Origin: a virus
IMG/VR virus record: IMGVR_UViG_3300037264_009888
Direction: 5' to 3' (one strand)
DNA length: 29,428 nt
Shown here: piece by piece, positions 1-15,210 of the stretch
Numbering within the stretch: the stretch's first letter is position 1
Layout of the letters: each line of letters begins with the position of its first letter
Notes under the pieces: generated by a model
Database searches by the model: none
The model's input: the letters and a program-made list of their open reading frames with translations, nothing else
Told to the model about the DNA's origin: nothing
Translations under genes and position numbers: made by a program

Positions 1-159
1 TCATGCCGCCTTGAACATGCTAGGCCGAATCCCCGCCTTCGCCAGCAACTTCCCGAAACTCACGCCCCCCTGGGCCGCCTGGGGACGGGGCCGCCTCTCG
101 GGCTTGTAGCCCTTCGGGGCCGGAACCACCACTCCGTACCTGCTCATGTCTGTCGCCAT
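1..159 (-). CDS. hypothetical small protein (52 aa, MATDMSRYGVV...)
   Basis: ATG at 157-159 (minus) with GGGCCCCTGCC...AAGGAGGGACGGAGA directly upstream; stop at 1-3. Start taken at the RBS-supported Met, not the ORF-track Met. Confidence 0.5.
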   Translation of the reverse strand: MATDMSRYGVVVPAPKGYKPERRPRPQAAQGGVSFGKLLAKAGIRPSMFKAA

Positions 160-234
160 TCTCCGTCCCTCCTTTGACTTCCGGCAGGGGCCCGTCGGCG
201 TTTCCGGCACGTACAGCCTGCCCGGACATGGAGT

Positions 235-273
235 GGCCCCCTGCCTGGGGCACAAGCCGCCAGGCAGGGGGCC
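235..273. repeat. perfect 14-bp inverted repeat (GGCCCCCTGCCTGG / CCAGGCAGGGGGCC) with 11-nt loop; possible terminator or RNA element
   Basis: Read directly. The stem contains the GGCCCCCTGCC start-associated motif. It lies between the stop of the 322..684 gene and the upstream element of the 1..159 gene. Confidence 0.6.
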
Positions 274-321
274 GGGGGACGGAACTTCTCGGAACTGCTT
301 GTCGGTACGGCGTTTACGGCA

Positions 322-684
322 TTACGCTGCGTCGTGAATCCAGGTTGTATCCCGCTGGTGCTCCTGCATCCACTTCAACGCCAGCCGCTTGCCCTTGCGG
401 TACTGCTCCTGCGGGACGACCACCCACCGCTTGCCCATGAATATGTTGCCGCTGGCTGTCGCCCCGATGCAATCCTGGTGGGGACGCCAGAAGTCCGCCC
501 GCACGCCCTCGGCCTTCAGGTACTCGATGACCCGCTCCAGTTCCGCCAGAACCTTGTCCGTGGGGGCCGGACTGTCGCTGCATCTCCCGCAGTCGCTCGA
601 TCCCGCAACCGCATGTCTCGGAATGTCGTAGCTGTCGCGGCCCCAGCCGTCAACGCCCTTGTGCCGCCTGAATTGGCTCGCCAT
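322..684 (-). CDS. hypothetical protein (120 aa, MASQFRRHKGVDGW...)
   Basis: RBS GAAGGAGGAC then ATG at 682-684, preceded by GGGCCAGGGCCCCTGCGAGG. Real start is internal to ORF-track 322..804. Confidence 0.55.
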   Translation of the reverse strand: MASQFRRHKGVDGWGRDSYDIPRHAVAGSSDCGRCSDSPAPTDKVLAELERVIEYLKAEGVRADFWRPHQDCIGATASGNIFMGKRWVVVPQEQYRKGKRLALKWMQEHQRDTTWIHDAA

Positions 685-724
685 CGTCTCGTCCTCCTTC
701 GCTTCCTCGCAGGGGCCCTGGCCC

Positions 725-967
725 CTAGTCCTCCGGCACGTAGGGGAACGGGTATCGCTCCTCCTCCGTGTCCCCAATGTCCTGCCTCGGCGTAGGGTCC
801 GCACGCCGGAAGCCCATCTTGCCCTCGGGCTGCGGAGCCTGCCCCTTCCCCCCGACGGCGTTCTCGGGAGCGGCGTTTTCCAGCCGCTCCGCAGCCTCGT
901 GCAGGAACTTCGCTATCTCCCGCGGGCTCTCGGAAGGCTCCGTGTCCACTGAAATCGTGATCTTCAT
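725..967 (-). CDS. hypothetical protein (80 aa, MKITISVDTEPSE...)
   Basis: GGGCCCCGCCCGGGAGTTGAAGGGAGGGCCGAGG precedes ATG at 965-967; internal start of ORF 725..1282. Confidence 0.5.
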   Translation of the reverse strand: MKITISVDTEPSESPREIAKFLHEAAERLENAAPENAVGGKGQAPQPEGKMGFRRADPTPRQDIGDTEEERYPFPYVPED

Positions 968-1026
968 CCTCGGCCCTCCCTTCAACTCCCGGGCGGGGCC
1001 CGCTTGCCGGCACTGGCGTTTCTCGC

Positions 1027-1239
1027 CTACCGGACCGACCGGGCCGGATGCCCCCACGCCCCCATGCCCTTCGCCTTCCCGATCGCGTCCCGCATGTTCG
1101 CCAGGGCCAAGACCCCGAAGAACGCGGACAGGCAGCAAATCCCGAACGCCCCGAAGGCCAGCAGGGCCAGCAGCGACAGGCCGAAGTTGGCAACCGCCAC
1201 CAGGCCCGACAGAACGGCCAGAATCTTCATCCGCAGCAT
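1027..1239 (-). CDS. small hydrophobic membrane protein (70 aa)
   Basis: MLRMKILAVLSGLVAVANFGLSLLALLAFGAFGICCL is strongly hydrophobic. RBS GGGAGGGAAC lies upstream of ATG at 1237-1239. Confidence 0.5.
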   Translation of the reverse strand: MLRMKILAVLSGLVAVANFGLSLLALLAFGAFGICCLSAFFGVLALANMRDAIGKAKGMGAWGHPARSVR

Positions 1240-1281
1240 CTTCGTTCCCTCCCTCAAGTCCCCTCTGCCCGGCTCCCGGCA

Positions 1282-1521
1282 CTACGCCGGAACCATGTAC
1301 GACTGGCCGACTACCTTGCCGCCCGGGCGGGCGTAGACTACCGACGCCATCGCCAGGACCTTCCGGCAGTGGCCGTCAAACCTCGGCCCCAGGACCTCGG
1401 TCTCAACCATCCTGTACTTCCCGCCGTCCAGCAGCTCAACGAACCGCCGGACCGCAGACCCGGCAACCTTCTTGCCGGCCCGCAGGGCGGCCAGGAACTC
1501 CCGTCTCGTCGCTTGTCTCAT
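1282..1521 (-). CDS. hypothetical protein (79 aa)
   Basis: GGGCCCCTGCCGGAAGCCGGAAGGGGGACGACG precedes ATG at 1519-1521. Confidence 0.55.
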   Translation of the reverse strand: MRQATRREFLAALRAGKKVAGSAVRRFVELLDGGKYRMVETEVLGPRFDGHCRKVLAMASVVYARPGGKVVGQSYMVPA

Positions 1522-1553
1522 CGTCGTCCCCCTTCCGGCTTCCGGCAGGGGCC

Positions 1554-1781
1554 CTACCCCTCAGCCGGCACGTCGCTCTTGCTCTCAACGTCGCTCGGAT
1601 CGATGTCGCAGTCCCCGATGACAAGCTCGAAACTCGACAGCTCGAACGGGTGCGGGAAGCCAGCCGCGCGAACGGGCCAGGTAAAGTACCACTCGCACTC
1701 GCTCTCGTCATGCAGCACCGTCCAGCCTTCCTTGCGGAACTTCTCCGCCGCATCCTCCGCGTACTCCAGGCACGAAGCCAT
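1554..1781 (-). CDS. hypothetical acidic protein (75 aa, MASCLEYAEDAAEKF...)
   Basis: ORF with modest RBS (GGGAG..AAGGGATG); no start-associated element. A competing ORF 1436..1870 in another frame is low-complexity. Confidence 0.45.
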   Translation of the reverse strand: MASCLEYAEDAAEKFRKEGWTVLHDESECEWYFTWPVRAAGFPHPFELSSFELVIGDCDIDPSDVESKSDVPAEG

Positions 1782-1856
1782 CCCTTCTGCTCCCTCTGCT
1801 TCCCGTTCTTGAACTGAAGGCAGACTTCCATCAGAACGTCCTGGTTCACGTCCATC

Positions 1857-1991
1857 CTAGTATCCCCCAAGCAAGGTCACCGAGAAGCCCCGAATCTCGT
1901 ATGTCACGCCTTCCCGAACCAGCTGGGCGACGAACGCCGCCATCAGCCTCATCCCGTCCTCATCCGCATCGAAGTCAACGGTATGCCTCAT
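1857..1991 (-). CDS. hypothetical mini-protein (44 aa, MRHTVDFDADEDGMRLMAAFVAQL...)
   Basis: Translated by hand. ATG at 1989-1991 overlaps the TGA (1988-1990) of the upstream gene as ATGA, with GGGAGGA 9 nt upstream. Below the ORF-track size cutoff. Confidence 0.3.
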   Translation of the reverse strand: MRHTVDFDADEDGMRLMAAFVAQLVREGVTYEIRGFSVTLLGGY

Positions 1992-2182
1992 GGCCGCTGG
2001 TCCTCCCGCTTCCGCTCGGGGCCCTGCCGCTGGCAGTCCCGCTCGCTGGCACGCCCAATGTCCCCGCCGCTCGCCCTGACGATGTTCGTCAGCAACGCCT
2101 GCTGGACGCTGTTCGTCCCGTTCCCCGCCAACGCCGCCCTGAACTCCTGCATGGAAAGCCCGTGATGGTCAAAGGTTATCAT
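1988..2182 (-). CDS. hypothetical protein (64 aa, MITFDHHGLSMQEF...)
   Basis: GGGCCCCTGCGAGCAGTTGAAAGGGGACGGAT precedes ATG at 2180-2182. Confidence 0.5.
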   Translation of the reverse strand: MITFDHHGLSMQEFRAALAGNGTNSVQQALLTNIVRASGGDIGRASERDCQRQGPERKREDQRP

Positions 2183-2357
2183 ATCCGTCCCCTTTCAACT
2201 GCTCGCAGGGGCCCGCCCCTCCTGGCACGTACCGCCAGGACGCCGACCCCCGCCGGGCCCCGACCTTGAATCGCGGGCTGGGAGGAAGGCGATTCATCCG
2301 GACCCGACCCCCGGACGCCTTCCTGCCCAGCCAAACAACCAGGCCAAGGAGAACGCC

Positions 2358-2534
2358 ATGCGCAACGGAAACAGCGGGACCGCCATCAGAAACTGCGGAT
2401 GCAGCAACGCCTTCCAGGACGCCCGCTACGGCCCCGGCCGCCGCGTCGCCAACGCGACCAAGGACGGGCACCGCTGCACCTCGTGCGGCCAGGCCATCGC
2501 CCGGCAGGCAAAGCCCGTCGCCGCCATGGCCTAG
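2358..2534 (+). CDS. small Cys4 zinc-ribbon-like protein (58 aa, ...NCGCSN...HRCTSCGQ...)
   Basis: Hand-translated. RBS AAGGAGAAC at 2346-2354, ATG 2358, TAG 2532-2534. First plus-strand gene after the divergent intergenic region 2183..2357. Confidence 0.5.
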   Translation: MRNGNSGTAIRNCGCSNAFQDARYGPGRRVANATKDGHRCTSCGQAIARQAKPVAAMA

Positions 2535-2571
2535 CGGCAGGGCCCCGTCCCTGGGACGGAGGGACAAGACA

Positions 2572-2724
2572 ATGGGCGTCAGCGTCATGCAGGCCGGCTG
2601 GTTCTGGCTCCTTGTCCCCGAATGGAGGGACGGAAGCCTCTACGCCGTGACCGTCCAGTTCTGGTGCGAGCGGGGCGACACGGTGGTCCACGGGGCCAAG
2701 CCCTACGCCAGCGTCTACGGATAG
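2572..2724 (+). CDS. hypothetical protein (50 aa, MGVSVMQAGWFWLLVPEW...)
   Basis: GGCAGGGCCCCGTCCCTGGGACGGAGGGACAAGACA precedes ATG at 2572. It is the 3' portion of ORF-track 2266..2724. Confidence 0.45.
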   Translation: MGVSVMQAGWFWLLVPEWRDGSLYAVTVQFWCERGDTVVHGAKPYASVYG

Positions 2725-2751
2725 GGCCCCGCCGAGAGACCGGAGGAACCG

Positions 2752-2964
2752 ATGCCAAAATATCCCGAGGGCAAGTTCTACGTCGGGATGAGGGGCGAGA
2801 ACCCCGACCCCAAGTATCCCTGCATCATCTCCGGCCCCTTCGATGTCCCGCCGGACATGGGCACTTCCGGGCACAACCTGTGGACCCGCCAGGGCCACGC
2901 CTGGGTCTGGGTCAGGGCCGCCCCATACGTGCCGCCACGCTGCCCCTGCTGCGGCAGGGCATAG
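2752..2964 (+). CDS. hypothetical protein (70 aa, C-terminal CPCCG)
   Basis: TAGGGCCCCGCCGAGAGACCGGAGGAACCG precedes ATG at 2752. Confidence 0.5.
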   Translation: MPKYPEGKFYVGMRGENPDPKYPCIISGPFDVPPDMGTSGHNLWTRQGHAWVWVRAAPYVPPRCPCCGRA

Positions 2965-2996
2965 GGCCCCTGCCCCCAGGACGGAGGGACGACGAC

Positions 2997-3632
2997 ATGC
3001 GATGCCACCACGGAATGGAAGAGGGACAGTGCGCGGCCTGCAACCGCCTTTCCAGCCTGCTCGCCGCCCAAAAGGCAAAGAAGTCCGCCGAGGCAGCCAA
3101 GGAAGCCGCCAAGGCCGCTGCCAAGCAGGCCCGCGAGGAACGCCTCAAGCCGCAGTTCGCCCGCGACGAGGACTACTTCATCGGCCTCGGCCTTCTGGCC
3201 GCGACCTGCTTCGTGGACGCCCACGTCCCCCCGCAGTTCCGCGCCAAGTTCGCCGGCGACTACCTCGGCCTCACCGGCCTGCCCGCCAACGCGGGCGACA
3301 CTGGCTTCACGACCGCAGACCCCAACCAGTGGGGCATCAGCATGAGGATATACTTCCCCAAGCGGGTCTTGAGCATCCTCCCCGGACTGGAAGCCTTCGT
3401 CACCTGCACCGACATCTCCGATTCCAACACCTCCGCCGTCAACAACAAGCGGTGGGCCTACGAGCTCTTCTCCCTCGGATTCCGCCTCGGAAGGAAGCAC
3501 GACCTCGAGGCGATCCGCCGCTCCATCCCGCCCGAGAGCCTGGAAGCCTTCGACCTCGGCTTCTCCTCGGCCGCCCCAGCAGAATCCGTCCAAATGTCCG
3601 CGGCCCCGGCCTCGGCATCGGCCGCCGCATAG
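2997..3632 (+). CDS. CHHGME-motif protein, paralog A (211 aa)
   Basis: CATAGGGCCCCTGCCCCCAGGACGGAGGGACGACGAC precedes ATG at 2997. Protein opens MRCHHGMEEGQCAACNRL, followed by a K/A-rich helix. Confidence 0.6.
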   Translation: MRCHHGMEEGQCAACNRLSSLLAAQKAKKSAEAAKEAAKAAAKQAREERLKPQFARDEDYFIGLGLLAATCFVDAHVPPQFRAKFAGDYLGLTGLPANAGDTGFTTADPNQWGISMRIYFPKRVLSILPGLEAFVTCTDISDSNTSAVNNKRWAYELFSLGFRLGRKHDLEAIRRSIPPESLEAFDLGFSSAAPAESVQMSAAPASASAAA

Positions 3633-3676
3633 TGCCTGGAAGCCGGGCCCCTGCCCCAAGCCGGAGGACGACGACA

Positions 3677-3991
3677 ATGAAATGCCACCACGGAATGGAA
3701 CAGGAACAGTGCGGATGCTGCCAGAAGCTCGCCATCCTGGCCGCCCAGCAGAAGGCCGCGAGGGACGAGGCCGCCGCCAAGGAAAAGGCCAAGGCCGACA
3801 AGGCCGCATCCAAGGCCAAGGCCGAGGCCGACAAGCAGGCCCGCAAGGCCGCACGCGAGGCCAAGGCCGAGACAAGGGCCGAACTGGCCCGCGAGCGGTT
3901 CGCCGTCAAGGCCCAGCGGGACTACGAGGCCGCCCATCCCGAACTGGCCGCGGCGGCAGTGGCGGCAGTGCCGGCCGCGGACGCCGCCTAG
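3677..3991 (+). CDS. CHHGME-motif protein, paralog B (104 aa)
   Basis: GGGCCCCTGCCCCAAGCCGGAGGACGACGACA precedes ATG at 3677. Protein opens MKCHHGMEQEQCGCCQKL and has a K/A/E-rich helical tail. Confidence 0.6.
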   Translation: MKCHHGMEQEQCGCCQKLAILAAQQKAARDEAAAKEKAKADKAASKAKAEADKQARKAAREAKAETRAELARERFAVKAQRDYEAAHPELAAAAVAAVPAADAA

Positions 3992-4021
3992 GGCCCCGGC
4001 CCCAAGCCGGAGGAAACGACA

Positions 4022-4300
4022 ATGGCTTCCGACTGCATCAAGGCCAAACTCATCGCCGCTGCCTGCGTCTACGACGCCCGGCAGGCCAAGAGGCCCGGCT
4101 ACAACCGCTACGCCCTGCCCCAGTACGTCGCCAGAATCCACGAGGTATGCGACGCCCTGCCAGCAGACGCCCTGCCAGCAGACCCCAGCGTCCGAAAGGG
4201 GCTGCTGCATGGCTTCAGCGGCAGGCTCGCCGACGCCATGCTGAAGGCCGTCGGCCAGCCCAAGGCGACCAACGACGAGGCCCGTGCCGCAGGCTGGTAG
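4022..4300 (+). CDS. hypothetical protein (92 aa)
   Basis: TAGGGCCCCGGCCCCAAGCCGGAGGAAACGACA precedes ATG at 4022. Contains an in-frame 15-bp duplication (ALPADALPAD). Confidence 0.55.
   Translation: MASDCIKAKLIAAACVYDARQAKRPGYNRYALPQYVARIHEVCDALPADALPADPSVRKGLLHGFSGRLADAMLKAVGQPKATNDEARAAGW
4154..4183 (+). repeat. perfect 2x15-bp tandem duplication (gccctgccagcagac x2)
   Basis: Read directly; in frame inside CDS 4022..4300. Confidence 0.9.
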
Positions 4301-4334
4301 CCGGGCCCCGCCCAAACGCCGGAGGGACGCGAAC

Positions 4335-4589
4335 ATGACGACGACGAAGCCGAAGATGCGGGTCATGCGGGACGAAGAGTTGGACCGCCCCGAGCAACTG
4401 GAATGCAGGCTGGCCCAACTGCGTGCGGAACTGGCGACGGCGGACGACAAGGCCCAGACGGTACGCCGCATTGAGCGGCTCAAGCAACGCCTGAACCCCA
4501 ACGGGACGGTCAAGCCCCCCGTCCCCGCCATCATGCTGGTCAGCAAGCGGGACGTTGACGACTGGGGCGACCGCCATCCCGCCATGTAG
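4335..4589 (+). CDS. hypothetical protein (84 aa, MTTTKPKMRVMRDEELDRPEQLECRLAQLRAELA..., predicted helical)
   Basis: TAGCCGGGCCCCGCCCAAACGCCGGAGGGACGCGAAC precedes ATG at 4335. Confidence 0.55.
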   Translation: MTTTKPKMRVMRDEELDRPEQLECRLAQLRAELATADDKAQTVRRIERLKQRLNPNGTVKPPVPAIMLVSKRDVDDWGDRHPAM

Positions 4590-4604
4590 GGCCCCGACCG
4601 AGAG

Positions 4605-4850
4605 ATGCAAGACAAGGCCATGGGGCAGGGTCACGAGGGCAACGACGGCATTGCGCCGTCCCCTCCCCCTGCCCACGCCTTTGCCCCCGCCCATTCCTGG
4701 CACGGCCCGCCAGGCCGCCAGGGCATGACGGCCGGGCCCCGCCCCAAGGCCGGAGGGACGAGCCATGCGAGTCAAGATTACCGTGGACGAGGAAGAGATC
4801 AGGAAGCTCATCGTCGGGCTGCTGGCAGACAAGAGCGGCGTCGAGGTTGA
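4605..4850 (+). CDS. doubtful ORF (81 aa, Pro/Gly/Arg-rich low complexity)
   Basis: Preceded by TAGGGCCCCGACCGAGAG but with no good RBS. Overlaps the better-supported 4765..4944 gene in another frame. Confidence 0.2.
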   Translation: MQDKAMGQGHEGNDGIAPSPPPAHAFAPAHSWHGPPGRQGMTAGPRPKAGGTSHASQDYRGRGRDQEAHRRAAGRQERRRG

Positions 4851-4944
4851 CCCGCAGGCGATCGTCTTCCACTCGCCGGACAACGACGAGATCAGCGCCT
4901 CCATCGACGTCGACGCTGCCGACCTGCACCCTGTTCCGAACTAG
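4765..4944 (+). CDS. hypothetical acidic protein (59 aa, MRVKITVDEEEIRKLIVGLL...)
   Basis: GCCGGGCCCCGCCCCAAGGCCGGAGGGACGAGCC precedes ATG at 4765; TAG at 4942-4944. Hand-translated; below the ORF-track cutoff. Confidence 0.45.
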   Translation: MRVKITVDEEEIRKLIVGLLADKSGVEVDPQAIVFHSPDNDEISASIDVDAADLHPVPN

Positions 4945-5176
4945 GCCGAGGGCCCCGCCAAGAAGACATGAGAGATTCGGGAAGTTCGTCAGTCAACCGG
5001 GTGGTGAATGAGGCAGCGGGGCGCTGGTAGAGACCCGACCGAGGGCAGCCACCTACGGGGAACGCACGGCCATGCCCCATATCGCCAGCAGCCGACCGGA
5101 GGGCTAGGCCAGCCCAAGGGCGTCGGTATCCGAGGGAGGGCCCCGCCCGAGGATGCAGGTAGGAGGGGCGAGTATT

Positions 5177-5462: not shown

Positions 5463-6866
5463 CTATTCAACTATTAGATGAAGAGGAAAGTCCGTCTTGT
5501 TGCTTTTTGCAAGGTTCGTTTTCTTGTCCAATTGCTGGTATTCGGTTGTAGAGAAAAGGCTTTTGGGCTTTACATGGTCTGTTTGGGAGTTTTCCGCAGT
5601 CAGGGGCATGCCGCTGACGGGGTCCCGGTCCGGTGCTTGCCTGATGGATTCGCGTCGGCCGATTTCCGTGACTCCCTTCATCTTTACCCCAATGTCTAAA
5701 CCAGGAATCGCCTCCAGCAGGCACTGAAGATTGGAGAGACGGGCCTCTATATTCTTTACGACATGGGTATTGGATTTAGAGAAACTGAGACCTTCCGTAT
5801 CGTTCCATGTACCGTGTGCGAAGAACATGTTCGCAAGCTTTTTCTCGTTTTCCCTGACGAATGCGTCTGTGAAGACCCTTTTTTGCATCTGCTGGACGAA
5901 GAACCAAATGCAGTCAGACACCCACACGTCAGTCATCCTGTTCTGGGTCTGCTTGTCCCTGAGCATGTCATTGAATGCGCTGCAAGCCTTGCGTATAACA
6001 TCTATCTGCTTTCTCCTGTCAGGACCAAGTTTGTCGAGGTCCTCCTCGTAGAATTTCGATTCCATCGGAGAGTTGCACAATTCGAGTTGTTGCTCCAGGT
6101 TACAGAGAGCCTTGTCCTTTGACGCCCCACCAAGGTCCCTTACCTGGAAGCTGTCGTCGAGCCTTGTTCCCAATGGCAGGAGCAGCAACTTGTGCACGAA
6201 GATTATTCGGCTGAGTTCGTTTTGTGCCGTCTTGCGTTGGAGTGCCCTTACAAGGAGAGTCTTGTCCTTGAAAAACCACTCCCAAAGGAACTCCAGGAAT
6301 CTCTTCGTTCTGGCGTGCAAGCAATACTGCTTCTCTGTCGCTCCAAGGGATTCTCCTCCGTTGATGCGGCTGAACAGGAGCATTCTGGCGGCGGTCGTCA
6401 AAGGGTCGTAACAGTACATGTGCAGATTGTACTCGTCAAAGGAGCGCATGATAGCCCCGCACGTTACATCCCCCTCCTCGGACCTTCTTGCTATCTGCCC
6501 GTATGTCATGTTCTTGGAGATTTCCTCGGCGACTCGCGGGGGGGTAAATAGCACTGGGACGGTCAGCTCGTCGTCTCGGAAGGCTTTGATGGTTGACAGC
6601 CTTTGCTTGCCGTCGGCAACCCACCAATCGCTCGCCGCAGAAGGCTTGCTCTTGGCTACTACATGTATCAGGTTGATGGGCTTGTCCTCGACGATGGACT
6701 CAATAAGCGCTCGCTGCTTCGCTTTGGTCCAGACCTCTCCTCTTTGGTAAACATCCTCGAGGTCGTATCTTGCCGACTGTTGGCAGAACTGCTGGATGGT
6801 CATTACCTTTGGAACTGGCTTGTCTTGCTGTTCCCTGAATGGATCAATTGCTGTTTTCGTGTTCAT
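5463..6866 (-). CDS. DUF262 (ParB-like NTPase) + DUF1524 (His-Me finger) GmrSD-family type IV restriction-like endonuclease (467 aa)
   Basis: N-terminal DGKQRLSTI matches the DUF262 DGQQRLTT motif. C-terminal ...QTDHVKPKS matches the DUF1524 (E/D)HIxPxS motif. Visibly lower GC than its flanks. ATG at 6864-6866 with GGAG 7 nt upstream; the ORF-track GTG at 6878 is less likely. Confidence 0.8.
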   Translation of the reverse strand: MNTKTAIDPFREQQDKPVPKVMTIQQFCQQSARYDLEDVYQRGEVWTKAKQRALIESIVEDKPINLIHVVAKSKPSAASDWWVADGKQRLSTIKAFRDDELTVPVLFTPPRVAEEISKNMTYGQIARRSEEGDVTCGAIMRSFDEYNLHMYCYDPLTTAARMLLFSRINGGESLGATEKQYCLHARTKRFLEFLWEWFFKDKTLLVRALQRKTAQNELSRIIFVHKLLLLPLGTRLDDSFQVRDLGGASKDKALCNLEQQLELCNSPMESKFYEEDLDKLGPDRRKQIDVIRKACSAFNDMLRDKQTQNRMTDVWVSDCIWFFVQQMQKRVFTDAFVRENEKKLANMFFAHGTWNDTEGLSFSKSNTHVVKNIEARLSNLQCLLEAIPGLDIGVKMKGVTEIGRRESIRQAPDRDPVSGMPLTAENSQTDHVKPKSLFSTTEYQQLDKKTNLAKSNKTDFPLHLIVE

Positions 6867-6959
6867 CGTAGGCTCCACGCCTTTCCTGCTGTCAAATCAC
6901 AATGGCAGATTATATCTGGAAGATGGGAGGGCTTGACTTAAATTTGCCCATTCCCTGGA

Positions 6960-7808: not shown

Positions 7809-8114
7809 TTACTCCTTGCAGCCAAGGGACTTGCTTGCCTCAACGGCCTTCTCGTGGGACGATCCTATCATGCGGTAGAGGTCTTCGGGGGAGAAGCCCG
7901 GCTCGGAGCGGGTCTTGCCCGAGCGGTGCCACTCCTCGGCCTTGAGGTGGCAGTCCTCGCAGAGGGAGACGCCGTTCTCGGGGGCGTAGCCGCCGTTGGG
8001 CATCTCGTAGCGGTCGGAGATGTGGTGGGCGTCTGCGGCGGGCCTGCCGCAGGCCTTGCAGAGGCTGCGGTCGCGCTGCAGGCAGGCGGAGCGGAAGCTG
8101 GAGCGGAGGCTCAT
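7809..8114 (-). CDS. HNH endonuclease (101 aa)
   Basis: CKACGRPAADAHHISDRYEMPNGGYAPENGVSLCEDCH matches the HNH signature C..C...HH...N...C..CH. ATGA overlap with the upstream gene. Confidence 0.75.
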   Translation of the reverse strand: MSLRSSFRSACLQRDRSLCKACGRPAADAHHISDRYEMPNGGYAPENGVSLCEDCHLKAEEWHRSGKTRSEPGFSPEDLYRMIGSSHEKAVEASKSLGCKE

Positions 8115-10185: not shown

Positions 10186-11215
10186 TCAATCCCACCATCC
10201 AACAATCCTGCCGTGAAGAAGGACAAACGCAACCGCAGCAGCGAGAGGTACGACCCCGTTTCCGACTGCCCGCAGGGAGTCAGCGCGTCCGCCCAGCCCG
10301 GGGGCCAGCCCATCATCCACGCCGCGAACCTCTCGTTCTCGGCAGGGCATGAGGGAGGGGTCCACAGCCGCAACAGCCTGCCAGTCTCTCCAGCAACGCA
10401 GCTCAGCAAGTATTCTATCTCGTCTGCGGGCGTCTGTCCAGTTCCTGGAGAGCTCGCGGCGGAGCTCGGCGAGGGAGACGGTTCGCCTGGGGGCGAAGAG
10501 GGGGCGTCCCTGTTCGGGGGCCACTGGGTCGACTGGGAGGTGAGGTCGTGCGGGAAGTAGTGCCTGTCCGCCATGGTGGCCCGCTGGCTGCGCCTGCCGA
10601 TGGCGTCGTGGGCCTGGGGGGTCGACCATTCCGCCGCCCGAGCGGGCGAGGAGGAAGACCCTGTTTCGTCGGTGGGGGGCTCCCACTGCGGCCCGCAGGA
10701 AGCACCGTCCATTCCGCATCCCACCCGTCTTCGGCCAGGTCTCCGAGAACCCTGGTGACGCCGGCGGCGAGGCCCCTGCTCCTTTCCGGGGAGAGGAAGC
10801 CGTGGACGTTCTCCAGGAAGAACCACTCGCATCCCATGTCGCGAAGGTGCTGCCGCATCCAGGGCCAGAGGTTGCGGGGGTCGTCGAGGATGAGGCGCCT
10901 GCCCGCGAGGCTGTAGCCCTGGCAGGGGAGGCCTGCGACGGCAATGCCGCCAGCCATTGCTCGACGGAAGACTGGGCCTGGGAATGTCTTGATGTCGTCC
11001 CAGAGAGGAGCCTGACCCAGGGCCTTTTCCTCCATCCTGGCCACGAGGACGGCCGCGGCGTAGGCTTCCCGCTCGACGTACACGACAGGGACGGGCAGTC
11101 TTCCGACCAGCTCGAGGGCGGCATGGAGTCCGACGTCGAGCATGCCGACGCCGGAGCAGAAGCTGGCGACGGGGATGGGTTCTGGTTCGTGGTCGGGTTC
11201 GGGACGTAGAGCCAC
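10186..11215 (-). pseudogene. Dcm-like DNA cytosine-5 methyltransferase, multiply frameshifted
   Basis: Frame 10415..11215 carries motif I (FCSGVGMLDVG), motif IV (GLPCQGYSLAG), motif VI (FLENV) and the start of VIII (AEWTVLPA). Motif VIII continues in a second frame (AAVGAPHRRNRVFLLA). A third frame carries EWSTPQAHD and ENERFAAWMMGWPPGW. Motif X (LRAVGNGVVPLAAAVAFVLL) is back in the second frame. At least 3 frame changes occur between about 10700 and 10285. Start has an AGGAGGAG RBS. Confidence 0.7.
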
Positions 11216-11225
11216 ATCGCTCCTC

Positions 11226-11492
11226 CTAGGGGTTTTCCTCGCCGTCCTCGCAGTCGACCTCCTCGAGGTTCTCCTTGGCGGACTTGGAGGGGTCCCAGCC
11301 GGGGACCATGTCCTCGTAGTCGTCCTCCGAGAAGTTGAAGAAGTCGTCGCGCCAGAACTTCTTGCCGCACTTCCAGCACTTGATGGCGACGCCGTCGCCG
11401 ATCGTGGAGGTGCAGTCCTGCTGGTCGCCTAGGCAGACCCAGTTCTTGGCGTCGCAGTGGGGACAGAACTGCTTGATGTAGGTGTCGGACAT
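11226..11492 (-). CDS. zinc-ribbon protein (88 aa, CPHC...CWKC)
   Basis: AAGGAGAACC RBS before ATG at 11490-11492. Confidence 0.5.
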   Translation of the reverse strand: MSDTYIKQFCPHCDAKNWVCLGDQQDCTSTIGDGVAIKCWKCGKKFWRDDFFNFSEDDYEDMVPGWDPSKSAKENLEEVDCEDGEENP

Positions 11493-12232
11493 GGTTCTCC
11501 TTTCCAGGGGGTGAAGATGTCCCATCCGGGGGGCAGGAAGGCTGGGGACAGAACCTCGACGAGGCGGTCCTTCCACGCCCTGGCGTAGGCCTTCCAGTCT
11601 CCGCCCGTGTCTGGCTCCCAGCCCTCGCAGGCCTTCTCTATTCTGTCGTGGCATTCCATGCAGAGGAACAGGATGTTGGAGATGTGCTTCCGCAGGTCGA
11701 GCGGCAGCTTCTTCTTGTGCCGCTGGGGGACGACGTGGTGCTGGGTGAGCCTGCTGGCCCTCCCGCAGCAGCAGCACCTGCAGTTCTTTGGGAACATGAG
11801 GAGGCTGGAGAACTCGGAGCCGTCAAGGGCGTCTCCGTACAGCCTCCGGAGGGTCTTTTCCGCGACGTCGGTGACGAACTGCAGGGTATCTGGGAGGCCC
11901 TCGACGGGGCGGACGTAGCCCTTGCGGAGGTAGCGGTTGGCCTTGTTCTCGTTGCAGGCGAAGAGGGGCCTGCCTGAGGTCGACAGGATTCTGTAGTTCC
12001 TCCAGATCGTGGCCCCGTCGAGCATGGAGTAGTCGGCCATCTCGTTGATGCGGCGGGAGTCGCGGACGAAGGTCCTGACTCGGCAGCGTCCGTGGGCCTT
12101 GCGGCCCTTCGAGAAGTTGACCGGCGGGTGGAGGATGAGGTAGGAGGCCCTGTCGTCCTCGATTGAGACGATCTTGCGGACGAGGGCGACGCGGCCCTTC
12201 TTCCTTACCCAAACCTCACCTACGGAAGGCAT
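11429..12232 (-). CDS. HNH endonuclease (267 aa)
   Basis: CRCCCCGRASRLTQHHVVPQRH...NILFLCMECHDRIE fits the HNH motif. GAGGAAG RBS before ATG at 12230-12232. Confidence 0.7.
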   Translation of the reverse strand: MPSVGEVWVRKKGRVALVRKIVSIEDDRASYLILHPPVNFSKGRKAHGRCRVRTFVRDSRRINEMADYSMLDGATIWRNYRILSTSGRPLFACNENKANRYLRKGYVRPVEGLPDTLQFVTDVAEKTLRRLYGDALDGSEFSSLLMFPKNCRCCCCGRASRLTQHHVVPQRHKKKLPLDLRKHISNILFLCMECHDRIEKACEGWEPDTGGDWKAYARAWKDRLVEVLSPAFLPPGWDIFTPWKGEPCPTPTSSSSVPTATPRTGSA

Positions 12233-12832: not shown

Positions 12833-13306
12833 CTATTCTGTGGCAGCGTCAAGGAGGGCCTCGGCGGCGTCTTGGGCAGCCTTGGCGGCCTCCTCGGACT
12901 GGACGTGGCTGCCGAGGCTCCTGGCCATTGCCTGAACGTCCTTTGCGAGGAGGATGTTGGTGGCCCTGGTCTTTTCGGCCTCCTGCTTGGACTGCTTGAG
13001 GAAGTCCTGCAGGGGTGCCAGTTCCACCAGGACCTGCTGCTTCCCGAGCTGGTCTATCTGCTGCCGGAGCCTGGCCTGCTCGGCGTCGGCTTGGGTCTTG
13101 GCCTTGGCCATGTCCGCCTGGAGGGAGGCGATGGCGTCAGCCTCCGGCTTGCTCCTGAGGGCCAGTTCCTCCCTGAGCCTGGCGACCTCCTGCTTGGCCT
13201 CGTCGCGCTCCTTCAGGACCTGCCCGACGGGCTGTTCGGGGGAACCGCAGCTGCAGAGGGCCAACGAGAGGGCCAACATTGTGGCCCAGGCCATGCCTTT
13301 TTTCAT
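12833..13306 (-). CDS. secreted/lipoprotein-like coiled-coil protein (157 aa)
   Basis: MKKGMAWATMLALSLALCSCG signal/lipobox-like N-terminus, then a Q/A/E/K-rich helix. AAGGAGGAAGCC RBS. Confidence 0.55.
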   Translation of the reverse strand: MKKGMAWATMLALSLALCSCGSPEQPVGQVLKERDEAKQEVARLREELALRSKPEADAIASLQADMAKAKTQADAEQARLRQQIDQLGKQQVLVELAPLQDFLKQSKQEAEKTRATNILLAKDVQAMARSLGSHVQSEEAAKAAQDAAEALLDAATE

Positions 13307-14064
13307 GGCTTCCTCCTTGGTACTTCCCGGTGAACAGTGAAGGCGGCATAGTACTGGCAGGGGCCGACATGGTAAGGATTCTCGGCATTGCCGCGGCCCA
13401 TCCACGACTTGACGACCTCCTCGCGGAAGCCGTTCTGGAGGTCCCACGTCCCCGAGCCGATGTCGAGCTGGACGCTGGCGTGAGTCCCCGCCTTGTCCAC
13501 TGGGGGCAGATCCTCCGCCGGGGAGAAGCACAGGCTGTAGAAGCACTCCTTGGAGAGCCTGAGGGCGATGTCCGCGACGTGGCCCTCGAACGTGCCGAGC
13601 TCCCTTGTGGACCTCCCCTCGCAGTCCCCCTCGGTGGTGACGCGCCACCTGCCGACTGGGGATGGGGCCCACCTGCAGAGCTTCCTGAGGCCCGACTCGC
13701 ACGCATGCGAGTTCGAGGCCACCTTGCTCGCCCCCTTGCGCTTGGCGAGTTCCCTCTCCAGGTCCTCTGTCGTGGCTTCGGAAAGGTTCTTGCTCATTTT
13801 GGCCTCCTTGAGCGGGGGGCGTCCGTGCTTGTCGAGCTCGTTGAGTTCGTGCGGCTCGTAGCATCCGACCGTCCCGTCGCTGTCGTGCTTGACCTCGTAG
13901 CAGAGCCCGTGCGAGTCGTGGACAGCCGTCACCGTCCCGTCCTCGCCGGAGCGTCTGGGCTCGGAGTACGGGCTCCAGTCGCTGGCGACCTGGTCGGGGT
14001 AGATCGTCGTCCTGACACGGGACCCTATCTCCAGGACGTCTGCGTCTTGCTTGGCGTGCTTCAT
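13303..14064 (-). CDS. hypothetical protein (253 aa)
   Basis: AAGGAGAGGCC RBS; ATGA overlap downstream. Confidence 0.55.
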   Translation of the reverse strand: MKHAKQDADVLEIGSRVRTTIYPDQVASDWSPYSEPRRSGEDGTVTAVHDSHGLCYEVKHDSDGTVGCYEPHELNELDKHGRPPLKEAKMSKNLSEATTEDLERELAKRKGASKVASNSHACESGLRKLCRWAPSPVGRWRVTTEGDCEGRSTRELGTFEGHVADIALRLSKECFYSLCFSPAEDLPPVDKAGTHASVQLDIGSGTWDLQNGFREEVVKSWMGRGNAENPYHVGPCQYYAAFTVHREVPRRKP

Positions 14065-14243
14065 GGCCTCTCCTTGCACCTGCAGCATTTAGAGCATTTG
14101 CCGCAACGCGAGCACCCGGTGAGGAATACCCCGCCTGACAGTGCCATGACGAACCCGCCTATGTTCCACGATTCGCCGCACTTCTTGCACATTCTCCAGC
14201 CAGCCTTGTAAGAAGCAGGCTTTCGGGAGGCATGGTGGCTCAT
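14061..14243 (-). CDS. small Cys-rich protein with a hydrophobic segment (60 aa)
   Basis: MSHHASRK...CKKCGE...GGFVMALSGGVFLTGCSRCGKCSKCCRC; ATGA overlaps on both sides. Confidence 0.45.
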   Translation of the reverse strand: MSHHASRKPASYKAGWRMCKKCGESWNIGGFVMALSGGVFLTGCSRCGKCSKCCRCKERP

Positions 14244-14935
14244 TCTCGGCTCCTGCTCTTGGAGGAGAACGGGAACGGCGGCACCCGGTCCGGGAGGTCG
14301 CTGGCGAACTTCTTCGCGTGTTCGACGAACGTGCTCAGAGGGATGTAGGACTTCAACGCAGCGAGGGCGTCCTTGAACTCGCGTTCCAGCTCCTCGTCCA
14401 CCGTACCTCCGGGTATGGTCCCGTGCCCGGTCCTCAGGGCGTCCAGCAGCAGTATCGACTCCTTGAAGTAGGTAACGATGAAGCTGGTCGGGGCCCCTTT
14501 CACGTCCCTCAGGTTGTCCGTCCTGTCGGCCAGCTTGATCATCTTGGCCTCCTGGGAGACGGACACGATGTGAGCCCTGTCGATGGCCTTCCTGTCGTCC
14601 CTGCTGAAACTGGGGAACTTCTTGGAGGGGTTGGTCAGCTCCCAAACGAGGTCGGCGACCTTGGTTCCGAAGACGGTATAGGGCTCGGAGCAGTCCGCAT
14701 TTGGCCCTGCGGGAGGCTGGAAAACGTTCGCTATCTGGCCGACGCTAACCCTACAGTCCTCGATGACGTCGTGGAGCCAGGCGGCGCAGACCACGGCCTC
14801 GGTTCCCTTGGGGTGGACGGACATCCTCGCCGCCACCCTTCCGGGATGGACGATGTAGGGGGAGCCGTCGTACTTGCGGGTCTGGCCCTCGTGGAAGATG
14901 GCGGCGGCCCTGGCGGCCAGCAGGATCGGGTTCAT
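14240..14935 (-). CDS. RelA/SpoT-family HD-domain (p)ppGpp hydrolase (small alarmone hydrolase), 231 aa
   Basis: YIVHPGRVAA...VCAAWLHDVIEDC and KLADRTDNLRDV align with SpoT (YITHP...AALLHDVIEDT and KLADRTHNMRTL). GGAGGAG RBS. Confidence 0.75.
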   Translation of the reverse strand: MNPILLAARAAAIFHEGQTRKYDGSPYIVHPGRVAARMSVHPKGTEAVVCAAWLHDVIEDCRVSVGQIANVFQPPAGPNADCSEPYTVFGTKVADLVWELTNPSKKFPSFSRDDRKAIDRAHIVSVSQEAKMIKLADRTDNLRDVKGAPTSFIVTYFKESILLLDALRTGHGTIPGGTVDEELEREFKDALAALKSYIPLSTFVEHAKKFASDLPDRVPPFPFSSKSRSRE

Positions 14936-15210
14936 GCCTTCTCCTCCCCGGCCCTCCTCAGGGCCTCCAGGATGGTCTGCTCCAGGGTAGGATCGTCCTC
15001 GTCGTCCCTGGAACGTGCGCCGTACGCGTTCGGAGATGCGGGGAACCCGCCGTCCGACAGGAAGCTGCAGACGGTCGTCTCCTTCTTCCCCTCGTACAGC
15101 GTCACCGTCCAACAGGTCGCCCCATACCCGTTGTCGATGTCGATCGACACGGAACGAGACTTGTGCCCGTACTTCCACCTCTCCAGCCTCTCTAGCGCGT
15201 TCGGCATCAT
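14932..15210 (-). CDS. hypothetical protein (92 aa)
   Basis: GGAAGG RBS before a tandem ATGATG start. Confidence 0.5.
   Translation of the reverse strand: MMPNALERLERWKYGHKSRSVSIDIDNGYGATCWTVTLYEGKKETTVCSFLSDGGFPASPNAYGARSRDDEDDPTLEQTILEALRRAGEEKA

Follow-up and report, generated by a model that had tools for sequence, protein, structure and literature searches.

A predicted Mesh1-like small alarmone hydrolase encoded without a synthetase partner on a phage-like element

The stand-alone small alarmone hydrolases (SAHs) of the Salmonella phages PVP-SE1 and SSU5 each neutralise the toxic small alarmone synthetases (toxSAS) CapRel, PhRel, PhRel2, FaRel and FaRel2 (Jimmy et al. 2020, PMC7229694). 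The antitoxin ATfaRel of C. marina and the human MESH1, a ppGpp hydrolase, likewise neutralise all five toxSAS toxins tested, and in FaRel operons SAHs act as antitoxins (PMC7229694). MESH1 and ATfaRel also strip the pyrophosphate placed by FaRel2 on the CCA end of tRNA and thus restore pyrophosphorylated tRNA (10.1101/2021.04.30.441581); a report of MESH1 as NADPH phosphatase is cited in the same work. Such genes are now annotated routinely in phage genome papers (PMC12846349). Here we describe a divergent candidate of this class on the virus record IMGVR_UViG_3300037264_009888, of which a stretch of 29,428 nucleotides, called the window in the following, was analysed. A preliminary description of this DNA, made from the sequence alone, had seen in the gene at 14240..14935 an alarmone hydrolase of a mobile element. 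We consider it likely that the gene encodes a catalytically competent stand-alone SAH, expressed from a phage-like element and counteracting a growth arrest based on alarmones or pyrophosphorylated tRNA.

The gene and the regions of its product have the following positions; the coordinates of the two long motifs were checked by translation.

14240..14935, minus strand: SAH gene, open reading frame (ORF) from ATG to TGA with a translation of 231 aa, predicted stand-alone hydrolase (HD_4) of the RelA/SpoT-homologue (RSH) type, Mesh1-like
14873..14878, minus strand: R20-K21, substrate-binding basic pair (QTRKY), aligned to QRRK of Mesh1
14846..14848, minus strand: H30, first metal-ligand histidine (YIVHP), aligned to YINHP of MESH1
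14756..14773, minus strand: HDVIED motif, residues 55-60, with the metal ligands H55-D56 and the catalytic dyad E59-D60
14672..14725, minus strand: lineage-specific loop insertion, residues 71-88, VFQPPAGPNADCSEPYTV, gapped in alignments with Mesh1
14501..14536, minus strand: KLADRTDNLRDV motif, residues 134-145, with D137 (fourth metal ligand) and N141
14243..14428, minus strand: C-terminal region, residues 170-231, two predicted helices and a disordered tail in the AlphaFold2 model

The affiliation to the RSH hydrolases was consistent across sequence families, profiles and predicted structure. In the Pfam scan HD_4 (PF13328) was the sole domain over threshold, with 45.3 bits compared to a gathering score of 27.2 (E 1e-11, residues 7-151), whereas the generic HD model remained under its threshold (14.2 bits vs 22). 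PHROG 990, a 'metal-dependent phosphohydrolase', was matched at E 2e-26. A single-sequence search of the PDB had Drosophila Mesh1 as best match (E 3e-10); human MESH1 and Listeria Lmo0812 came next, and after them the N-terminal hydrolase domains of Rel/SpoT proteins. The preliminary description had proposed a comparison with Mesh1 or the HD domain of SpoT. A profile of 51 proteins, the query and 50 homologues (alignment A1), gave E 5e-31 for human MESH1, which was covered from end to end, and E 1e-28 for T. thermophilus Rel. The AlphaFold2 model calculated on A1 had a predicted local distance difference test score (pLDDT) of 90.6 and a predicted template modelling score (pTM) of 0.85. In a Foldseek comparison of this model with the PDB the best 45 matches were all RSH hydrolase domains with Mesh1 first; the template modelling (TM) score was about 0.8 for Mesh1, normalised to the target, and 0.75-0.82 for stand-alone SAHs. 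HD folds outside the RSH proteins, such as YpgQ, appeared only from rank 46 onward and with E > 0.1. Fifteen viral structure models had the same fold at E <= 1e-3. The claim of a SpoT/Mesh1-type HD hydrolase was thus borne out, and so was the claim that synthetase and regulatory domains are lacking: synthetase, TGS and ACT regions were not found in the Pfam scan and in the match to TIGR00691, the spoT_relA model, which aligned at its positions 4-65 of 687 only.

Both motifs named in the preliminary description, HDVIED and KLADRTDNLRDV, were located by translation of the minus strand. HDVIED lies within WLHDVIEDC (residues 53-61) and aligns to LHDTVED of human MESH1 and LHDVVED of Drosophila Mesh1. 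KLADRTDNLRDV is part of the longer stretch IKLADRTDNLRDVKG (residues 133-147) and aligns to KLADKLYNLRD and KLADKLDNLRD of the Mesh1 proteins. The four metal ligands H ... HD ... D are present as H30, H55-D56 and D137 on the YINHP, LHD and KLAD positions of Mesh1; the ED dyad, three residues past HD, and the substrate residues R20 and N141 are also present and aligned to Mesh1. We take the roles of these residues (metal ligands, ED dyad, substrate arginine and asparagine) to be those established for Mesh1 and RelSeq; the metal ligands of human MESH1 are H35, H61, D62 and D122. Across the 51 proteins of A1, R20, H30, H55, D56, E59, K134, D137, R138 and N141 were invariant, and D60 and K21 were conserved in at least 90 % of them. 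A gap at the catalytic His and Asp residues had been named beforehand as a possible weakness of the assignment; none of them is missing, all align to Mesh1 positions and are conserved in A1.

Outside the active site two regions stand out. The loop of residues 71-88 is missing from most of the aligned homologues shown and is shorter in the closest relative (P0002); the confidence of the AlphaFold2 model is reduced here to 78-85. The C-terminal region, residues 170-231, lies outside the Pfam match, and most homologues have a length of 165-200 aa. Its helices are predicted at residues 181-195 and 200-213, and the pLDDT drops to 55-67 beyond residue 210. The differences from Mesh1 were only the 18-residue loop insertion (71-88), an extra C-terminal helix and a disordered tail. 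Based on the HD_4 match, the Mesh1 alignment, the conserved active site, the fold and the lack of synthetase, TGS and ACT regions, the gene product is therefore assigned, from sequence and structure model, as a stand-alone SAH of the RSH superfamily with intact active-site residues.

The start of the gene is supported by a GGAGGAG sequence 5' of the start codon. A longer in-frame ORF up to 15337 was rejected as SAH gene, because homologues start at the same MNPILLAA and because a 92-aa ORF takes up 14932..15210 in a different frame. The third-position GC content (GC3) of the SAH gene is 0.88, compared with 0.85-0.87 in the neighbouring genes; therefore the gene appears native to the element. 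It is embedded in a chain of minus-strand genes with an intergenic spacing of -4 to +10 nt, whose members around the SAH gene are listed in the order of transcription.

15746..15774, minus strand: near-consensus sigma-70-like promoter, TTGACA, 17 nt, TG-n-TATTAT, with 11/12 hexamer matches and the TG of an extended -10 element
15217..15717, minus strand: 166-aa ORF with hydrophobic N- and C-termini, GC3 0.85, AGGAGG before the ATG
14932..15210, minus strand: 92-aa ORF upstream of the SAH gene, with no recognised domain, GC3 0.86, ATGA overlap with the SAH gene
14061..14243, minus strand: 60-aa Cys-rich ORF, ATGA overlap at both ends, AGGAG 6 nt before the ATG, GC3 0.70
13303..14064, minus strand: 253-aa gene downstream in the chain, PHROG 7661 of unknown function at E 7.5e-18, GC3 0.87

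The ATGA overlaps of the SAH gene with the 92-aa ORF upstream and the Cys-rich ORF downstream, already noticed in the preliminary description, are both exact, at the junction of the 92-aa ORF with the SAH gene (AAGGCATGAAC) and at that of the SAH gene with the 60-aa ORF (CGAGAATGAGC); at each of them the stop codon of the first frame shares the ATGA with the start codon of the second. The stop of the 60-aa ORF overlaps the ATG of the 253-aa gene, again by ATGA. The putative promoter is located 29 nt upstream of the 166-aa gene, in the only sizeable upstream gap of the chain (64 nt), in DNA of 60 % GC. On the SAH strand a terminator-like site was not found down to position 12000. The gap with its promoter match and the lack of a terminator down to this position therefore suggest a likely transcription unit that comprises the promoter, here a consensus match, the 166-aa gene, the 92-aa gene, the SAH gene, the 60-aa ORF in brackets, the 253-aa gene and onward.

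A functional tie of the SAH to its two small neighbours, as implied in the preliminary description, was not sustained. The 92-aa ORF had no Pfam or PHROG match and only 6 homologues among 5.8 billion clustered proteins. A protein 64 % identical to it is encoded with the same overlap in the related contig L002/L003, where four genes upstream of it are syntenic as well and the 166-aa and 60-aa ORFs are absent. The 92-aa protein was rejected as a dedicated partner or toxin of the SAH, since some 140 other SAH loci lack it and since in two distant loci (L147, L148) its homologue has no SAH as neighbour. The 60-aa Cys-rich ORF had no Pfam match and is absent from L002 and 146 other loci. Its GC3 is low compared with 0.85-0.92 in the other genes measured, and it is missing from the gene calls of the public contig. 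A role as conserved SAH partner was dismissed, as no homologue occurred in any fetched locus and the codon-position GC is atypical. In its favour are the AGGAG Shine-Dalgarno sequence and the continuity of the chain, which would otherwise be gap-free except for 175 nt at this place; it is plausibly a candidate gene. For the 166-aa ORF a Pfam or PHROG family match was not obtained, and it has no counterpart in the syntenic contig L002.

The surroundings of related genes were surveyed with Pfam in 74 related loci, on 124 flanking ORFs from a crude gene calling that took the longest ORF of the same strand. The counts may include redundant loci, as the SAH matches of three IMG/VR loci (L012-L014) were identical and may represent one phage lineage. 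A recurrent neighbour of the SAH clade was not present among the 124 ORFs beyond AAA_33 (3), MFS_1 (2) and RNA_lig_T4_1 (2). In a few related phage loci the SAH gene adjoins an AAA_33 P-loop protein, a T4-type RNA ligase or Thg1. The SAH behaves as a solitary, mobile gene.

Homologues are widespread. Among 1.84 billion cluster representatives, 9,011 matched the SAH at E <= 1e-3 and 2,163 at E <= 1e-10; a 90 %-identity protein collection yielded 1,304 further matches. Annotated phage genomes with homologues numbered 195, including phiKZ, 201phi2-1 and jumbo phages of Erwinia and Dickeya, and IMG/VR contributed 62 loci with a best identity of 40 %. The nearest relative among about 5.8 billion clustered proteins was 62 % identical and the next about 50 %; the identity to the closest relative was highest over the catalytic N-terminal 60 residues. 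The nearest homologues in genomes, with 40-44 % identity, were all in metagenome-assembled genomes (MAGs) of Planctomycetota, some of them on contigs of 0.2-1.2 Mb. Many phage records label the SAH homologue merely as 'metal-dependent phosphohydrolase'. One homologue (P0004, ENA ERZ1426824 / ERZ1426843) has 322 aa, 51 % identity and an N-terminal extension; its gene cluster encodes a Ro60/TROVE-vWA protein, a radical SAM enzyme and a PilM_2 (PF11104) protein, Ro60 being a eukaryote-like ribonucleoprotein component.

Beyond the SAH chain, most window ORFs are small and lack annotation. Those that could be recognised are of kinds common among phage accessory genes, such as an HNH endonuclease, a DNA methyltransferase, an RNA ligase and a glycosyltransferase; matches to PHROGs of unknown function were also obtained for several ORFs.

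5463..6878, minus strand: DUF262/GmrSD_N protein of 471 aa, Pfam 8e-13, PHROGs 1583 and 2598
7809..8114, minus strand: HNH endonuclease, several PHROGs down to 1.8e-11, Pfam HNH 1.5e-6
10186..11379, minus strand: DNA methyltransferase, PHROG 29583 at 3e-30 on a nested 266-aa ORF (10415..11215)
20180..22717, minus strand: protein of 845 aa resembling the major vault protein (MVP), Pfam MVP_shoulder E 1e-24, Vault_3 3e-8, GC3 0.92
23588..23977, minus strand: Tad4-like 129-aa protein, PF25186 'Type I Thoeris inhibitor Tad4' E 3.5e-9, PHROG 9822
24003..24575, minus strand: LigT-like 2',3'-phosphoesterase, weak match at E 0.006
27956..28633, minus strand: RNA ligase, Pfam RNA_ligase 1.9e-6, PHROG 548 1.4e-12

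The RNA ligase and the weak LigT-like match point to possible RNA-repair functions on the element. The Tad4-like match (37.4 bits vs a cutoff of 25) covered positions 1-106 of 113 of the profile; the gene lies directly upstream of a 323-aa zinc-ribbon protein, which is followed by the MVP-like gene, and these three genes form a candidate anti-defence cluster. The DUF262/GmrSD_N gene is situated in an island of low GC content, 53-57 % vs 62-69 % elsewhere, and resembles a defence gene, either cargo of the element or a recent acquisition. In the census of 54 window ORFs the PADLOC models NsnA (E 1e-17) and PD-T4-2_A (E 1.6e-7) were matched, plausibly by this DUF262 gene. The MVP-like gene is probably the most unusual of the window: its 845-aa product is collinear with the C-terminal half of the eukaryotic major vault protein (residues 481-806 vs about 475-807, PDB E 5e-18). 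Viral MVPs have previously been reported only in a 2023 preprint on two gut phages (10.1101/2023.11.10.566534), and according to a 2026 preprint ADP-ribose is bound in the MVP shoulder (10.64898/2026.05.01.722283). On the plus strand around ~2600..4000 two ORFs share paralogous segments with an M[RK]CHHGME..QC..C start followed by Ala/Lys/Glu-rich helices; this region has 67-69 % GC and long open frames on both strands, and coding assignments in 1..5000 are tentative.

From the homology to Mesh1 and Rel a mechanism may be drafted. A divalent metal, Mn2+ in these two enzymes, and the ED dyad would remove the pyrophosphate from the 3' position of (p)ppGpp and (p)ppApp; the pyrophosphorylated CCA end of tRNA is probably a further substrate. 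The SAH would be expressed as third gene of the overlapped unit, probably from the sigma-70-like promoter at 15774..15746. During infection it would erase a growth arrest based on alarmones or on tRNA pyrophosphorylation. The benefit would be that abortive-infection toxins of the toxSAS/CapRel type are countered, that the host stringent response is blunted, or both. Phage SAHs and MESH1 have been published to neutralise toxSAS, and the SSU5 enzyme is a homologue; therefore counter-defence or relief of the stringent response is the most likely role.

The mobile-element status claimed in the preliminary description was retained in part: phage-like genes, the PHROG matches and the Tad4-like gene speak for it, but it is derived from the context and a virion gene was not located. 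Several observations weigh against a phage. Capsid, portal, tail and large terminase genes were not present among about 40 ORFs scanned individually, the window representing 29 kb of a 36-kb contig. A weak match to the 'terminase small subunit' PHROG 4581 (3.6e-7) came from some window ORF, and 20 further ORFs gave no source; it may be the HNH protein itself. A close DNA relative was not found in annotated phage or plasmid collections, a search of IMG/VR did not return the contig itself, and the Planctomycetota homologues are a weak hint to the host. Without a virion gene the DNA could also stem from a plasmid, from an island or from a chromosome. In the last case the gene would be an ordinary housekeeping SAH, for instance of a Planctomycete, in a region that is not mobile, consistent with the MAG matches on long contigs and with the missing structural phage genes. 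This we consider quite unlikely, because tRNAs, Rfam RNAs and cellular housekeeping domains were not found in the 29 kb, most ORFs are small, on the same strand, overlapping by 4 nt and without Pfam match, several PHROG matches are phage-only and one family is a phage anti-defence family. Moreover, window genes other than the SAH were not common to any of the genome loci. Beyond the SAH they were shared only with the metagenomic contigs L002/L003, apart from two isolated matches in viral loci, a 219-aa ORF (18851..19510) with 43 % identity in L034 and the glycosyltransferase with 25 % in L006. Given the phage-like content but the lack of a virion gene and of a close DNA relative, a phage origin is therefore probable.

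Other functions were also considered for the hydrolase. The gene could be the type IV antitoxin of a toxSAS module of the element itself, shielding its carrier in the manner of ATfaRel of C. marina; SAHs are antitoxins in FaRel operons (PMC7229694), and translational coupling to two small ORFs of unknown function would suit such a module. Yet the adjacent co-oriented synthetase that marks a toxSAS-SAH module was not found; the flanking 92-aa and 60-aa proteins have no family match. Known alarmone synthetases are much longer than 92 or 60 aa. The RelA_SpoT synthetase family was not among the Pfam hits of the 54 window ORFs, thus the SAH is not the antitoxin of an adjacent toxSAS; nor was this family recurrent in the 124 flanking ORFs, and homologues of the 92-aa protein occur without adjoining SAH. 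An antitoxin function is accordingly extremely unlikely. Just as improbable is a catalytically dead protein that serves as a nucleotide-binding sponge, or an HD phosphohydrolase or dNTPase of a generic kind with no relation to alarmones. In favour of this reading, members of the HD superfamily have a wide range of functions, and many phage homologues bear only the phosphohydrolase label. Against it, no metal ligand is missing, the ED dyad specific to RSH proteins is in place as well, and both are conserved; the threshold is passed with the RSH-type HD_4 model but not with the generic HD model, and HD folds outside the RSH proteins follow only after the 45 RSH domains in the Foldseek ranking. 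The aRES 'phage phosphatase' was set aside as an alternative function, as this enzyme, described in a preprint, appears to be a Macro-domain and not an HD protein. Very unlikely, though less so than the antitoxin or the dead enzyme, is a protein that acts mainly as a Mesh1-type phosphatase on NADPH (2'-phosphate) or on some different phosphorylated adenine nucleotide, and shifts the NAD(P) pool in infection, for example against NAD-depleting defences. The closest solved relatives are Mesh1 proteins, including the complexes of MESH1 with NADPH (5vxa) and PAPS (9chy), the NADPH phosphatase activity cited above is attributed to MESH1, and the window holds a Tad4-like inhibitor of the NAD-derived Thoeris signal. 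However, (p)ppGpp and (p)ppApp are substrates of Mesh1 as well, and it neutralises toxSAS, so that the likeness to Mesh1 does not discriminate; the Tad4-like gene is 9 kb off in another gene cluster, and NAD-salvage genes were not among the Pfam hits of the window. A broader proposal sees in the SAH one arm of a multi-pronged counter-defence arsenal (Tad4-like, RNA ligase, MVP-like) of an uncultured phage, possibly of Planctomycetes, with pyrophosphorylated tRNA 3' ends, repaired together with the RNA-repair genes, or NADPH, for the NAD pool against NAD-depleting immunity, as substrate rather than free alarmone. It is unlikely, but kept in consideration because related loci pair the SAH with AAA_33, RNA ligase or Thg1 and because MESH1 acts on pyrophosphorylated tRNA and NADPH.

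With the stand-alone alarmone hydrolase as preferred reading, the SAH is one more divergent sequence in a well-populated class. Phage SAHs as a concept, a way to assay them and successful tests have been in the literature since 2020-2021, and a new question is not opened. The practical value lies in a correct annotation and in a further candidate for a broad-spectrum toxSAS neutraliser in co-expression studies. If an origin from a Planctomycete phage were true, the known host range of phage alarmone hydrolases would be extended, and there would be a hint of an immunity based on alarmones or tRNA pyrophosphorylation in Planctomycetota.

The comparison with described hydrolases places the protein close to Mesh1, which is nearest in the ranking by PDB sequence as well as by profile. 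Metazoan Mesh1 and human MESH1 (HDDC3; PDB 3nqw, 3nr1, 5vxa, 9chy) are likewise single-domain RSH hydrolases that align over the full length and have the H / HD / ED / D / N active-site positions in common with the query. Mesh1 is the best structural match (root mean square deviation 2.5-3.3 Å), yet the identity is 26-28 % only. The query has in addition the 18-residue loop (71-88) and about 50 C-terminal residues, its clade carries the motif LTNPSK at the place of VTDDK in Mesh1, and it is encoded on a prokaryotic phage-like element, Mesh1 in an animal genome. The long RSHs, T. thermophilus Rel (6s2t) and RelSeq (1vj7), have a homologous catalytic domain with the same motifs (profile E 1e-28 to 7.5e-24), but the query is without their synthetase, TGS and ACT regions. 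The Aph1-type (p)ppApp-specific hydrolase (7smg) shares a distant HD fold with the N-terminal 85 residues only (profile E 2e-11); this match is much weaker than that to Mesh1, and the query does not belong to the Aph1 family. The bacterial SAHs of P. aeruginosa (6yvc, 6z3n), C. glutamicum (RelH, 7qoc/7qod) and Leptospira (7qoe) have the same fold, with target-normalised TM-scores of 0.75-0.81, and as the query an HD_4 domain (profile E 1e-16 to 7e-13, identity about 22 %). Unlike the query they are chromosomal and have roles in biofilm formation or self-protection. In the single-sequence PDB search Mesh1 and Rel proteins were matched at E 3e-10 to 1e-7, the solved SAH of P. aeruginosa only at E 0.05-0.18; the query therefore probably belongs to an SAH subfamily other than those of the tested phage SAHs. 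Of these, the SAH of Salmonella phage SSU5 (PaSpo subfamily) is a direct homologue, with 32 % identity over residues 17-186 at E 2e-9, and the SAH of PVP-SE1 represents the PbcSpo subfamily; both are encoded by phages and are, like the query, stand-alone proteins without an adjacent synthetase. The sequence is divergent, but its architecture and presumed role match those of the phage SAHs already described.

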